Positions 16,097 through 20,074 of a stretch of 29,841 nt of DNA are shown here, piece after piece; the first letter of the stretch is position 1, and each line of letters starts with the position of its first letter. Made by a program: the position numbers and the translations under genes. Origin of the DNA: Candidatus Woesearchaeota archaeon. Lineage in GTDB: Archaea > Nanobdellota > Nanobdellia > SCGC-AAA011-G17 > UBA489. The stretch lies in the NCBI GenBank assembly GCA_964366285.1, contig CAYITV010000001.1, forward strand, positions 1-29,841, written 5' to 3'. The notes beneath the pieces are model-generated. The model was not told where the DNA came from. It worked only from the letters and a program-made list of their open reading frames with translations, and made no database searches.

Positions 16097-17268
16097 AAAC
16101 GTGGGTGGACAAATATACTCCAAATAGCTTAAATGAAATTGCAGGACAAGACTTTGCAATATCTCAATTGAAGAATGTAATTGAAAGAAAAGGTGTTGCA
16201 CTACTACATGGAGCGCCTGGGACTGGAAAAACCTGTAGCGTCTATGCATTGGCAAATGATCTCGGCTATGAAGTTCTTGAGATAAATGCATCTGACTTCA
16301 GGAATGAAGAGAATATGCAGAGGATTGTCGGCGGATCCTTGCAGCAGGCAAGCTTGTTCAGCAAGGGGAAGATTGTATTGGTTGATGAGCTTGAGGGAAT
16401 TTCAGGACAGGAGGACAGGGGAGGAATATCTGAGTTAAATGGTTTGCTTGACAGCAAGACGCATGCTGTTGTGCTGATAACAAATGATCCATGGGACAAG
16501 AAGTTCTCCACATTGAGAAAGAAATGCACCTTGATAGAATACAAGAATGTCAATGCTGACAGCGTTGCAAAGGTTTTAAGACGCATATGTGAAAAAGAGG
16601 GGATAAACTTCCTGGAAGAGGACTTGAAGATTCTTGCAAGAAGATCTGGAGGAGATGTAAGGGCAGCTATAACAGATTTGCATGCATTATGCATCGGCAG
16701 GAATGAGCTTTCGAGGGAAGACTTTTCAATCTTGGGGGAAAGAGAGCAGGAGAAGAGTGTTTTTACTGCATTGCAGGTTATCCTGAAGGGCAAGGACAGT
16801 GGCAAAGCAATCCAAGTGATGGATGAGGTTGATGTTGATCTGTTTGACATGATGCTGTGGCTTGATGAGAATATTGGAAGGGAATACAAGGGAAAGGATT
16901 TGGAATCTGGATATGACATGCTTGGAAAAGCTGATGTTTTCAATGGAAGAATCAAAAGATGGCAGTACTGGAGATTTTTGGTTTATATGAAGGAGCTGAT
17001 GAGCGCTGGAGTATCTGCTGCAAAAGAGATGCAATACTATGGGTATACGCCTTACAAAAGGTATGATCGAATCTTGAAGATGTGGATGGCGAATCAAAAG
17101 TATAAGAGAAGGAAAGATATTGCTGCGAAGCTTGCATCGCACAGCCATGTCTCTTCAAAATATGCTGTCAGGCATGTTGTTCCTTATGTAAAAATGCTTT
17201 ACAAGAAAGGACAAGAAATAGATGCTAACTTTACAGATGAAGAGGTTGAGTGGCTGAAAGAAAAATAA
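16093..17268 (+). CDS. rfcL: Replication factor C large subunit
   Basis: WVDKYTP, GAPGTGKT, EINASDFR, DELEG and GDVRAAI motifs; ATGA overlap with rfcS. Confidence 0.93.
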   Translation: MKTWVDKYTPNSLNEIAGQDFAISQLKNVIERKGVALLHGAPGTGKTCSVYALANDLGYEVLEINASDFRNEENMQRIVGGSLQQASLFSKGKIVLVDELEGISGQEDRGGISELNGLLDSKTHAVVLITNDPWDKKFSTLRKKCTLIEYKNVNADSVAKVLRRICEKEGINFLEEDLKILARRSGGDVRAAITDLHALCIGRNELSREDFSILGEREQEKSVFTALQVILKGKDSGKAIQVMDEVDVDLFDMMLWLDENIGREYKGKDLESGYDMLGKADVFNGRIKRWQYWRFLVYMKELMSAGVSAAKEMQYYGYTPYKRYDRILKMWMANQKYKRRKDIAAKLASHSHVSSKYAVRHVVPYVKMLYKKGQEIDANFTDEEVEWLKEK

Positions 17269-17312
17269 AAACAATAGTTTTATAAATGCATTCTGGAAAA
17301 ACAAATTCTATT

Positions 17313-17603
17313 ATGAAGATTAGCGAGTTAAAACCAAGAATGGGAAAGATTGAGATTGAAGTTACTGTTGATGATGTTGGAGAGATAAGAGAATTTGACA
17401 AGTTTGGCAAGAAGGGAAGAGTCTGCAATGCAACTGTAAGCGATGATTCTGGAAAGATAAAACTAACATTATGGAATGATGAGATTGACAAGGTAAAGAA
17501 AGGCGACAAATTAAAGATTTCCAATGGTTATGTGAATGAATTCCAAGGCGAGATGCAGCTTACTGCCGGTAGATTTGGTAAGTTAGAGGTTGTTGCTTCC
17601 TAG
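17313..17603 (+). CDS. ssb: Single-OB-fold ssDNA-binding protein (SSB/RPA-type)
   Basis: MKISEL, V.NATVSDDSGKIKLTLWN, NGYVNEFQGEMQLTAGRFG. TATA (17278-17286) 26 nt before ATG 17313. Confidence 0.88.
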   Translation: MKISELKPRMGKIEIEVTVDDVGEIREFDKFGKKGRVCNATVSDDSGKIKLTLWNDEIDKVKKGDKLKISNGYVNEFQGEMQLTAGRFGKLEVVAS

Positions 17604-17606
17604 TTT

Positions 17607-18005
17607 TTATATACCTACTAACTCATGCGTGTGATAGACTTCAATAGTATTTTGCTCTTTCAATTTTTTATCATTGCTCCAGATGGCACATTTTATTTTT
17701 AGAGCCAATGCAAAATAAGCCATGTCATCTGGATCCGGGCTTATCAGCTCAGCCTTTTGAATGAATTCACGCAATTCTTCCAAAGGCACTAAGATAATTC
17801 TTTTTTTGAGAATATCTAATGCATTATCAAATTCTTCAATGGTCTTCTCTGTTTTTTCAAGAATTTCAGCTTTATGCTCCTCCAACTCTGAGAATATATA
17901 CTCCGGTGCAAAGAGATGAAGTTTTTCATTGAAAAAAAGCCGGTAACTTGCGTTGTCTTTTATCAAAGATGCAAAAAGAATATTAGCATCAACAACAAGA
18001 TCCAT
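17607..18005 (-). CDS. PIN-domain (VapC-like) toxin
   Basis: LVVDANILF, E in APEYIFSEL, DPDD and WSND acidic PIN motifs. Confidence 0.9.
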   Translation of the reverse strand: MDLVVDANILFASLIKDNASYRLFFNEKLHLFAPEYIFSELEEHKAEILEKTEKTIEEFDNALDILKKRIILVPLEELREFIQKAELISPDPDDMAYFALALKIKCAIWSNDKKLKEQNTIEVYHTHELVGI

Positions 18006-18006
18006 T

Positions 18007-18237
18007 TTATCGAGCTATTGCCCTCAATTTGCTGCTGATTTTTTTGCTTACTTCTTTTCCCAAGCGCAATGCATCTTCTTCAGTAAGTTTACTTTTTTGT
18101 TTAAATTTTCTTAAGAACTCCATGTCAGCTACTTTTTGCATAAATGCCTGCCTTGCTACTTCTGACCAATTTATTTCTTTTATAGAGTCCATTTTTTGCT
18201 TCAATTCATTTGGCACGGCCAGAGTCATAGTGGTCAT
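18007..18237 (-). CDS. Ribbon-helix-helix antitoxin
   Basis: MTTMTLAVPNELKQKM...INWSEVARQA; directly upstream of the PIN gene; SD GGAG. Confidence 0.85.
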   Translation of the reverse strand: MTTMTLAVPNELKQKMDSIKEINWSEVARQAFMQKVADMEFLRKFKQKSKLTEEDALRLGKEVSKKISSKLRAIAR

Positions 18238-18298
18238 ATTTCTTCTCCATTTATGTGTGTTTATTTATAATATGTGCTTATATATAAATCTTCTGATT

Positions 18299-18364
18299 AA
18301 TCAATTTCGAGGCGAGATGCAATTGATTGCTGGACGATTTGGTAAGTTAGAGGTTGTTTCTTAG
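18299..18364 (+). pseudogene. Orphan second copy of the ssb 3' end (NQFRGEMQLIAGRFGKLEVVS*)
   Basis: Aligns ungapped with 17535-17594 at an offset of 764 bp; 50/60 nt identical, including a 23-bp perfect core. Confidence 0.9.
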
Positions 18365-19209
18365 AACTTCATTGCTTTTAATCTTTGAATTCTTTCTTGA
18401 AGAGGAGGATGACTTGAGAATAAATTGACCAGCCCCTGACCACTGATGGGTTTGACTATGAAGAGGTGACTTGTTGAGGGAGTGGCAAAGGTTAAAGGGA
18501 TGTGTTTTGAAGCATTATCAAGTTTTTGAAGTGCACTTGCGAGAGGCAATGGATTTTTAATTAGCCGAGCGCCGCGCTCGTCTGCCAAGTATTCTCTGCT
18601 GCGCGAGATTGCTAGTTGAATAATCATAGCTGCAAGAGGAGCAATAATAGCCATGAACAATAATCCTAATGGATTTCCTCCCCGATTATCGTTTCTGCCC
18701 CCACCAAAAATAACTGCAAAGCGAGCCATGAATGCCAGATAAGAGATTACTGATGCGATTGTGGCTGCTATTGTGGATATCAAAATATCCCTGTTCTTTA
18801 CATGGCCTATTTCATGAGCTAACACGCCTTTCAATTCTTCTTTTGTCAATAATTTCAGTATTCCTTCTGTGACTGCGACAACTGCTTTTTTTGGCGAAGG
18901 GCCTGTTGCAAAGGCATTAGCGTGTGGAGAGGGTATAAGGTAGACCTTTGGTTTAGGAAGATTGGCTTGTCTGCAGATGTCTTCGACCATCTTATGGACT
19001 TCCGGCGCCTTATTCTTTGGCAATTCTTTAGCGTGGTACATCATCAAGACTAATTTGTGTGAGAAGAAGTAGGTTCCGAAGTTCATTAAGACGGCAAATA
19101 TGAGAGCAATTGTCAATCCCTGCTGTCCGCCTATAAACGCTCCTATCAATAACAGAAGTCCTGAAAGGATTCCCAGTAGTAAAGCTGTTTTTAACTGGTT
19201 GAGTATCAT
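18361..19209 (-). CDS. htpX: HtpX family M48 zinc metalloprotease
   Basis: NAFATG, HEIGH, SRSREYLADE and FSSHPP motifs plus TM helices. Confidence 0.95.
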   Translation of the reverse strand: MILNQLKTALLLGILSGLLLLIGAFIGGQQGLTIALIFAVLMNFGTYFFSHKLVLMMYHAKELPKNKAPEVHKMVEDICRQANLPKPKVYLIPSPHANAFATGPSPKKAVVAVTEGILKLLTKEELKGVLAHEIGHVKNRDILISTIAATIASVISYLAFMARFAVIFGGGRNDNRGGNPLGLLFMAIIAPLAAMIIQLAISRSREYLADERGARLIKNPLPLASALQKLDNASKHIPLTFATPSTSHLFIVKPISGQGLVNLFSSHPPLQERIQRLKAMKF

Positions 19210-19231
19210 CAACTAGGCTTTAGAACGAAAG

Positions 19232-19239
19232 TTTAAATA
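19232..19239. promoter_or_regulatory. Single TATA element (TTTAAATA) centred between the divergent htpX and sigma genes
   Basis: TTTAAA lies 22 nt from the htpX ATG and 24 nt from the sigma ATG. Confidence 0.5.
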
Positions 19240-19261
19240 GTTTGCGGAGTAGTTATTTTTC

Positions 19262-20074
19262 ATGGATTTTAAAGCAAGAGGCAGGGTAAATGGTCTTTCA
19301 ATTGATCAGGAACAGAATCTTGTTTGTTTAGCACTGAAAGGCGATGCTGAATCGCGGGACTCACTGCTTCTTTCATATCGCAGGATTATCCACAGGGAAG
19401 CGCGACGATATGCCATCTATGCAGAAAGATCTGATTTAGAACAAGAGGGAATGATTGGCGTTTGCGAGGCTTTCGAGAATTATGACCCTTCATTTGGGGT
19501 GCCATTTAGGCACTATGTTTTTTATTGGATACGAAAAGCGATGATGGAGGCAACTGCAATGAACAGGTCAATACGATTGCCTAATGATCAGGTTGAATTA
19601 AGAATAAAGCTACACAGCATAGAAATCACACATTATAATGCCCATGGAAAACAACCCACGACGGAAGATTATGGATCTTTACTCGCTTCGAAAGCCGGGC
19701 CGCGCTTCTCGCCGCAAAGCATTGCAAGATCTATTGCAAATTATTCGCAATACATGCTTTCCCTTGACAGAAAACTTGATGAGGATTCAAAATTGACTAT
19801 TGGCGCATACTTTGCAGTTCCAGATGGTGATCCGTCTAATTATGCCGTGCTCTCTGAAATAAAAGAAAGGGTTTCAAGGGCATTAAAGTTTTTGTCGCGA
19901 TGGGAAAAAACAGTAATCCAAAAATATTTTGGGCTGGATGATGAAAAAGGGCTAACTTTAGAAGCTATTGCAAAGCTGGCTGGAACGCAAAAACAAAATG
20001 CACACAACGCAAAACGAAATGCATTGAAGAAGCTACGCATGTACGGCAGACTAGAAGATTATGTTTTGGAATAG
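19262..20074 (+). CDS. Sigma-70 family factor homolog (regions 1.2-4)
   Basis: EQNL..LALKGD..SRDSL (1.2), DLEQEGMIG..EAFENYDP..G..F..Y..YWIRKAM (2), RSIRLP, LSLD (3), LSRWEKTVIQKYFGL...TLEAIA (4). Confidence 0.9.
   Translation: MDFKARGRVNGLSIDQEQNLVCLALKGDAESRDSLLLSYRRIIHREARRYAIYAERSDLEQEGMIGVCEAFENYDPSFGVPFRHYVFYWIRKAMMEATAMNRSIRLPNDQVELRIKLHSIEITHYNAHGKQPTTEDYGSLLASKAGPRFSPQSIARSIANYSQYMLSLDRKLDEDSKLTIGAYFAVPDGDPSNYAVLSEIKERVSRALKFLSRWEKTVIQKYFGLDDEKGLTLEAIAKLAGTQKQNAHNAKRNALKKLRMYGRLEDYVLE

Follow-up and report, generated by a model that had tools for sequence, protein, structure and literature searches.

A toxin–antitoxin cassette bracketed by two ends of an ssb gene in a small archaeon, and similarly bracketed cassettes across its order

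We analyzed a 29,841-nt stretch of DNA (positions 1–29,841 of contig CAYITV010000001.1, assembly GCA_964366285.1; hereafter, the window) from a Candidatus Woesearchaeota archaeon, in which a two-gene toxin–antitoxin (TA) cassette lies between an ssb-like gene (hereafter, ssb) and the protease gene htpX. A copy of the ssb 3′ end lies on either side of the cassette: one terminates the working gene (copy 1), and the other, an orphan, stands alone on the far side of the cassette (Table 1). Judged by domain content, gene order, and a predicted archaeal promoter of its own, the gene pair is a putative VapBC-like type II TA cassette, and, as read from TA-free relatives, it is an insertion at an ancestral ssb/htpX junction. 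Sequence comparison further supports the two ssb ends as separate coding alleles, and not as a gene end and its decayed duplicate. Our preferred reading, to which we assign a probability of roughly 0.55, is that host recombination would have moved an enzyme-free cassette, a gene-end fragment serving as its homology arm. We favor it because of the silent divergence between the copies, the patterns at diagnostic sites, an identical core within the repeat, the empty sites, the recurrence of the layout across a cassette family, and a cassette-plus-gene-end unit found in two genomes.

A repeat search returned a single direct repeat of 64 nt and 83% identity (17,535–17,598 versus 18,299–18,362) with a spacing of 764 nt, and alignment of one cassette flank against the other reached z = 25–31 against shuffles. 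The repeated stretch corresponds to the last ~21 codons of ssb, and each copy extends to a TAG codon (ending at 17,603 and 18,364, respectively). Across 17,286–19,212, the order is ssb, PIN_2 toxin gene and antitoxin gene (both on the minus strand), upstream region, orphan ssb end, and htpX (minus strand), with 3 nt between the ssb and toxin stops and 1 nt between the toxin and antitoxin genes. Between the repeat copies there is thus the TA pair with its promoter region and nothing more, and neither this unit nor the window contains a recombinase gene; on both points, a preliminary description of the locus, made from the sequence alone, was correct. Differences between the copies are unevenly distributed, with 10 in the 37 nt left of a 23-nt core, none inside it, and one indel plus one substitution to its right. 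The same description had reported this 23-bp identical core, which we recovered, and an absence of indels, which has to be amended: copy 1 ends in VVAS and the orphan in VVS before the stop, the GCT codon at 17,595–17,597 (3 nt) being present in copy 1 only. As also described earlier, the orphan TAG (18,362–18,364) overlaps the htpX stop codon (18,361–18,363, minus strand), namely by 2 nt, and the last 4 nt of the orphan provide the stop codon of htpX. An assembly chimera, named at the outset as a possible source of the duplication, was ruled out by exact Logan contigs from two studies that span both junctions, i.e., X1 record 3 (17,092–17,681) and X4 record 30 (17,470–17,632, different study) for the ssb-end/PIN junction, and X1 record 6 (18,139–18,729) and X2 record 14 (17,928–19,410) for the antitoxin/orphan/htpX side.

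The preliminary description had argued that a mostly synonymous divergence marks coding alleles as opposed to a decaying duplication, and counts over 20 aligned codons bear this out. Copy 1 and the orphan differ by 6.0 synonymous and 4.0 non-synonymous changes (pS 0.49, pN 0.084), i.e., a ratio of non-synonymous to synonymous differences per site (pN/pS) of 0.17, and such mostly silent divergence indicates that both copies evolved as coding sequence. Had the orphan drifted neutrally over half that silent distance, 13.7 non-synonymous changes would be expected where 4 were observed (P(≤4) = 0.002). Changes specific to the orphan comprise three non-synonymous ones, at residues conserved in all orthologues, and one synonymous one, which looks like a brief period of decay; both changes specific to copy 1 are synonymous.

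We compared this locus with ssb loci from related genomes (n = 20) and metagenomes (n = 80). At 13 TA-free loci, including that of the closest relative (L053; 96% protein identity in ssb, 83% in htpX), ssb and htpX converge with no nucleotide between them or with stop codons that overlap, and the cassette is therefore best read as an insertion at their ancestral junction. The stops overlap in L053 as they do between orphan and htpX here; with such an overlap, both genes therefore survive only an insertion that duplicates at least the overlapping bases. This abutting or overlapping arrangement had been anticipated in the preliminary description, and so had a downstream-type ssb end in TA-free relatives, which L053 lacks and to which the ends of the more distant TA-free relatives, genome G002 and loci L054/L055, are similar. 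A second ssb end downstream of the gene is absent from all ~100 other ssb loci compared. Accordingly, the suggested other cargo between ssb 3′ duplicates was not found, and we abandoned the idea of ssb as a specific recurrent landing site, only 1 of ~100 loci having a downstream duplicate.

Other cargo does lie between ssb and htpX in repeat-free form, in G002, G039, L089, L093, L097, L091/95, L092, L113, and L131. In G002, which belongs to the same genus, a 200-aa P-loop (kinase-like) open reading frame (ORF) occupies the junction on the opposite strand (L004, 1787–2389), with an 11-nt overlap between its end and that of ssb and with the repeat absent. In L014/L030 (G039) and L098, homologues of the TA pair (72% and 61% identical) lie together with a 193-aa ORF between RFC-large and ssb, and the ssb/htpX gap is filled by another gene pair, of 69 aa and 108 aa, the second of which is AbrB-like and has a zinc ribbon; in L098, the antitoxin is also found upstream of ssb.

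As to which copy is native and which incoming, the relatives point in different directions. The preliminary description took the downstream copy to be ancestral, whereas the closest TA-free relative, L053, carries an upstream-type end, a result that the description itself had named as counting against it, with the GCT codon and the copy-1 state at all four diagnostic silent sites. G002, without the GCT codon, has the orphan's codon at three of the four sites and at the fourth agrees with the orphan in the first base of an arginine codon; L054/L055, also without GCT, agree with the orphan in the first base at two of the four codons and with copy 1 at the remaining two. Overall, judged by the GCT codon and the four silent sites, copy 1 goes with L053, and the orphan goes with G002 and, in part, with L054. 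The 23-nt core between diverged flanks suggests the trace of a reciprocal crossover within the repeat, in which case each copy would be a hybrid. Similarity along ssb is itself uneven: DNA identity to L053 is 73.7% over codons 1–33 and 88.4% over codons 34–96 (htpX 75.8%, RFC-large 66.6%), a similar jump (66.7 to 81.7%) is seen against L054, and identities to relatives are 67–74% over 17,313–17,411 and 77–88% over 17,412–17,603, with the protein conserved throughout. The divergent first third of ssb may reflect a difference in rate or an old recombination. We considered this mosaic as proof that the whole of copy 1 was imported and dropped it, the same jump being present against the second relative, L054.

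The layout is not confined to ssb. Of the order's 240 genomes, 85 contain homologues of the PIN_2 gene (E ≤ 1e-20), often in multiple copies and in unrelated contexts, and the similarity between cassettes begins at the TATA-like element and ends at the PIN stop. Direct repeats (29–161 nt, 82–100% identical, spacing 726–891 nt) bracket 14 of 78 non-tandem cassettes, against 1 of 400 random 630-nt segments of comparable loci submitted to the same test. Tandem antitoxin–PIN pairs in L152 (G056) and L180 (G040) were excluded from this count, their apparent repeats being the promoter or end of the neighboring cassette. None of the 14 bracketed units contains a recombinase gene, their spacing being taken up by the TA pair alone, and no terminal inverted repeat or common end motif was visible by eye in the aligned cassette ends. 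Among 11 identifiable targets, 10 are ends of housekeeping genes, i.e., SSB, three aminoacyl-tRNA synthetases, GatB, FtsZ, PTH2, Lhr, an AP endonuclease, and a tRNA (the last assigned by eye), and the eleventh is a surface protein. The earlier proposal that such cassettes use conserved genes as landing sites can thus be generalized to the cassette family, but does not extend to recurrent use of ssb. Of three cassettes that are ~80% identical to one another (L045, L138, and L158), no two share a target, and their repeats measure 36, 135, and 161 nt.

Divergence between working copy and orphan follows a similar pattern at other targets, with pN/pS ratios of 0.11 for GatB, 0.11 for one of the aminoacyl-tRNA synthetases, and 0.16 for PTH2. 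The pooled ratio over seven coding cases is 0.19 (~0.5 expected), five of them falling at 0.11–0.18 and two at 0.33–0.36, and in 8 of 9 coding cases the orphan still has a stop codon at the position homologous to that of the working copy. An attempt to polarize the GatB and aminoacyl-tRNA synthetase cases was given up, the available relatives being too distant. Two genomes, G094 and G096, share a 779-nt block of 91% identity whose limits are exactly the PIN stop and the GatB-orphan stop; because unrelated DNA lies on either side of it, a cassette and its gene-end fragment can apparently move as a single unit. Two further pairs of ~90% identity (L154/L157 and L029/L037) were tried for defining unit ends and set aside, as both are cut by contig ends.

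In the scenario that we favor for the window, the cassette would be a selfish type II TA unit of 0.7 kb, free of recombinases, that reached the ssb/htpX junction by host-mediated recombination and brought along a second allelic ssb end of ~21 codons. Specifically, a gene-end-flanked cassette of some lineage would loop out, or be transferred, with one repeat copy as its "homology arm"; this arm would pair with the end of the orthologous ssb in a related genome, and a crossover within the 23-nt core would insert the cassette. As a result, the working end of ssb would stay complete, and a hybrid spare would be displaced to the far side, still supplying the htpX stop. Afterwards, TA addiction and the adjacent essential genes would hinder loss of the cassette. 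The recombination route, the position of the crossover, and the native parts are what we infer from the compared sequences. A wider claim, which we put forward only tentatively and at less than even odds, is that this family of cassettes represents a minimal mobile element of DPANN archaea, free of enzymes of its own and dependent on host recombination only, with repeat-mediated loop-out and arm-guided re-entry into orthologous gene ends of other lineages; if this is true, selection among cassettes would favor arms from universally conserved genes.

Several observations weigh against movement by host recombination along a gene-end arm. No donor or near-identical cassette was found: the 567 PIN homologues at E ≤ 1e-30 among 5.8 billion sequences reach at most 73% protein identity, and those in the 240 genomes at most 72%. 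The cassette is absent from 30 other GatB loci and from every other ssb locus (~100), so that spread between lineages at one target was not seen directly. In G096, the cassette-plus-orphan unit is not beside GatB, which fits an illegitimate insertion or a fragmented assembly, and not an arm-guided insertion. Repeats in L138, L140, L148, and L156 are 97–100% identical, as would also fit a true target duplication. Neither a 764-nt circle joint nor a cassette-skipping (empty-site) joint was present among contigs of four runs, at a depth of only ~4–6×, so that this absence says little. An arm of 64 nt is short for homologous recombination. Finally, if the crossover lay in the core, the native end should have lacked the GCT codon, yet L053 has this codon, so that either a homoplastic 3-nt indel or another crossover point would be needed.

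Three other routes to the same anatomy have to be weighed. One of them, which has the polarity of the preliminary description and which we regard as unlikely, combines homologous recombination at one end with illegitimate recombination at the other: a linear fragment of a related donor (ssb 3′ part plus cassette) would undergo a homologous crossover inside ssb and be joined illegitimately ~64 nt before the recipient stop, making all of copy 1 foreign and the orphan native and attached to htpX. This would account for the contiguity of the orphan with htpX in the ancestral overlapping-stop arrangement, and the higher identity to L053 over ssb codons 34–96 than over codons 1–33, with lower values in the flanks, hints at such an imported 3′ tract; in the GatB repeat, moreover, the identical stretch lies at the far left and all differences run toward the stop. 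The mechanism has been described (PMC3240628) and proposed for displaced gene ends (PMC5361080). However, the identity jump also appears against L054 and is possibly a rate difference within ssb, the 23-nt core between diverged flanks is left unexplained, and the illegitimate end would have to land within ~9 nt of the cassette TATA element here and within ~5 nt of it in L049. Nor does this route explain the identical promoter/orphan junction in two genomes with different flanks (the GatB case), which argues against junctions formed de novo.

A true long target duplication, i.e., a single insertion into the native ssb end with 64–69 nt duplicated and the copies diverging in place, would match the pattern of restriction-modification (RM) units, with long variable repeats, no mobility gene, and frequent extension across a neighbor's stop (PMC2853133). 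Several family cassettes have repeats of 97–100% identity, duplication followed by decay seems to describe L045 (ratio 0.33, orphan with two stops) and L188 (ratio 0.36), and the overlapping ssb/htpX stops demand a duplicating insertion if both genes are to stay intact. For the window, we nevertheless hold this origin to be improbable: a silent divergence of ~0.5 per site goes with only 3–4 amino acid changes, no frameshift, and a retained stop, the differences are clustered and spare the core, and five sites, including the indel, would need parallel change toward the G002/L054 states. Elsewhere in the family, long target duplication is the likely origin of near-identical repeats, and it was possibly the founding event at each target. 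Similarly improbable in our view is integration at an attachment (att) site by a tyrosine recombinase acting in trans, or a larger element since stripped, with the core as att core and the cassette-borne end as attP arm. A diverged arm, an identical core, and a second diverged arm are the classic att pattern, conserved gene 3′ ends and a tRNA 3′ half are typical integrase targets, and the host genome (G000) has two tyrosine recombinases (PF00589, contigs C32 and C83, known by Pfam match), one of them probably XerA, carried by archaea. Against this, all 14 bracketed units hold the TA pair alone, and independent decay to that content is unlikely; the closely related cassettes with different targets vary widely in repeat length; neither a conserved end motif nor a terminal inverted repeat was visible; and no integrase or matching helper was found in the unit, the window, or the 14 bracketed cassettes.

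Insertion with long target duplication (ILTD), the nearest parallel in the literature, is known from RM units (Nobusato et al. 2000, Gene 259:99, as presented in PMC2853133; Furuta, Abe & Kobayashi 2010, PMC2853133; reviewed in PMC3874152), for which a life cycle of insertion, repeat-mediated release, and re-invasion has been hypothesized (PMC2853133, PMC3874152). In the 2010 screen, repeats were near-identical and no archaeal case passed (PMC2853133); the same paper discusses elements that integrate into tRNA genes. The cassette in the window resembles ILTD in being a small addiction-type module without transposase or integrase in the insert, in having flanking direct repeats of >30 bp and variable length (here 64–69 nt, 83% identical) that are single-copy at the empty site of relatives, and in the tendency of repeats to cross the stop codon of the neighboring gene. 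In contrast to ILTD, the cargo is a PIN/VapB-type TA pair, it is carried by tiny DPANN-type archaea, its targets show a strong bias toward ends of conserved housekeeping genes, and the repeat copies are different coding alleles instead of a fresh duplicate; pN/pS and the site patterns speak against both copies being derived from the local target, as a true duplication would have it.

Phage 21 and e14 insert in the 3′ end of icd and supply a replacement end. The locus shares with such gene-end-replacing integrative elements a duplicated end with an intact working copy, a spare with mainly silent differences, and an identical core between diverged arms, and it differs from them in having no integrase in element or window, a length of only 0.7 kb, many targets, and very different repeat lengths. 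Homology-facilitated illegitimate recombination (PMC3240628) and C-terminal displacement, the latter proposed for effector-immunity arrays of type VI secretion systems and for Rhs loci (PMC5361080), offer a further parallel, in that a conserved gene part anchors the event, cargo enters behind it, and the old end is pushed downstream as an orphan. There, the displaced parts are variable toxin tips under diversifying selection, whereas here the displaced part is a near-identical housekeeping allele and the cargo is unrelated to the anchor. In the literature covered, which was incomplete and thus no proof of absence, we found no description of archaeal TA cassettes with long target duplications.

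TA modules are notoriously mobile, and the movement of chromosomal copies outside plasmids, phages, transposons, and integrons is poorly explained. This locus is a clean case in which cassette, empty site, and displaced allelic gene end are all visible, and close to one in six of the cassettes surveyed in an archaeal order have this layout, at essential-gene ends. Host recombination is the probable means by which such cassettes spread. Should the arm-guided route hold, addiction modules would spread in very small genomes nearly free of mobile-element enzymes by exploiting how well housekeeping genes are conserved, and past transfers could be dated from the displaced ends that they left behind as fossils. 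In annotation terms, an orphan gene tail beside a TA pair is neither an assembly error nor a pseudogene of a duplicated gene.

Table 1. Features of the ssb/htpX locus (positions in the window).
Feature	Position	Strand	Description
ssb-like single OB-fold gene	17313–17603	+	96 aa; Pfam PF21473 Ssb-like_OB, E 3e-10
Repeat copy 1, working ssb 3′ end	17535–17603	+	…NEFQGEMQLTAGRFGKLEVVAS, then stop; residues conserved in all orthologues kept
Core of 23 nt, identical in both copies	17572–17594 = 18336–18358	+	candidate crossover region
PIN_2-domain toxin gene	17607–18005	-	132 aa; Pfam PF10130, E 4e-28
Antitoxin gene, VapB-like	18007–18237	-	76 aa; 1 nt upstream of toxin gene; beside PIN gene in relatives
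Cassette promoter region (predicted)	18238–18298	-	61 nt; layout conserved across cassettes
GGAG motif	18245–18248	-	
CACATA motifs	18252–18257 and 18271–18276	-	
TATA-like element	18280–18289	-	
Repeat copy 2, displaced (orphan) ssb 3′ end	18299–18364	+	…NQFRGEMQLIAGRFGKLEVVS, then stop; upstream gene body absent
htpX (M48 protease)	18361–19212	-	convergent with ssb; Pfam PF01435, E 3e-41

In a 14-sequence alignment, D6, E40, D91, and D94 of the PIN protein are invariant and D112 is at least 90% conserved, and the protein in the window has all five. The antitoxin matches the NCBIfam model NF050799 (VapB, Sulfolobus type) at E 3e-6, below the cut-off; no match was found in Pfam, in a profile search of PDB sequences, or in a Foldseek search with its AlphaFold2 model. 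That model has an extended or disordered N-terminus and three helices (predicted local distance difference test score of 74) and is compatible with the ribbon–helix–helix fold named in the preliminary description, which is a guess at this stage. Of 98 PIN matches in the retrieved loci, 82 have the antitoxin gene next to the PIN gene, and these are all the cases in which this query detected an antitoxin. Overall, the pair is like VapBC-type modules in its PIN toxin with five conserved acidic positions, its small antitoxin gene directly upstream, and its patchy, multi-copy distribution, and unlike them in an antitoxin without Pfam family and with a weak match to the Sulfolobus VapB model. The arrangement of a TATA-like element, two CACATA motifs, and GGAG, ~60 nt upstream of the antitoxin ATG, is conserved in 24 cassettes, and its function as a promoter is predicted from this layout. 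The cassette has a GC content of 33–34%, versus 41–44% in RFC and htpX.

The host genome comprises 816 kb on 115 contigs, belongs to a small archaeon of groundwater metagenomes, and contains RFC genes; its best protein matches carry the labels Woesearchaeota or Nanoarchaeota. Orthologues of ssb adjoin RFC-large in relatives. The ATG at 17,313 aligns with the starts of these orthologues and is the probable ssb start, an ATG upstream at 17,286 being also in the open frame; the stop is the TAG at 17,601–17,603. Matches of the product to NCBIfam SSB/RPA models are below the cut-off. Beside htpX, in otherwise archaeal surroundings, positions 19,262–20,074 (plus strand) encode a 270-aa protein with the Pfam domains Sigma70 region 2 and region 4.

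The host genome carries a second antitoxin–PIN cassette (L002, contig C48, 1057–4104; cassette at 1277–1875 of the locus), with a PIN protein 30% identical to that in the window. It is one of the 14 bracketed cassettes, its repeats (1171–1226 and 1930–1989; 60 nt, 83% identical) correspond to the 3′ end of a class I (Trp/Tyr) aminoacyl-tRNA synthetase gene, and the orphan stop codon is retained. This synthetase has its best matches in other families (66%), and two genomes of the same genus gave no match at E ≤ 1e-20; the targeted gene may thus itself have been transferred. In a genome of another family (G027, contig C35; L226/L038), a cassette of the window's subfamily (65–74% identical, PIN gene frameshifted) is convergent on the 3′ end of an orthologue of the same synthetase.

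In L148 (G163), a 96-nt repeat of 100% identity (1337–1432 and 2219–2314) brackets a cassette and apparently includes a tRNA 3′ half on the minus strand. ARAGORN reported no tRNA in L148 or beside the L048 cassette, despite a tRNA 3′ half visible by eye, and these tRNAs may be intron-containing or atypical. Finally, cassettes in L024, L027, and L031 form a subfamily with 78–90% DNA identity across families and a conserved tail of 50–110 nt beyond the PIN stop, which could be a carried-along fragment or a 3′ element.

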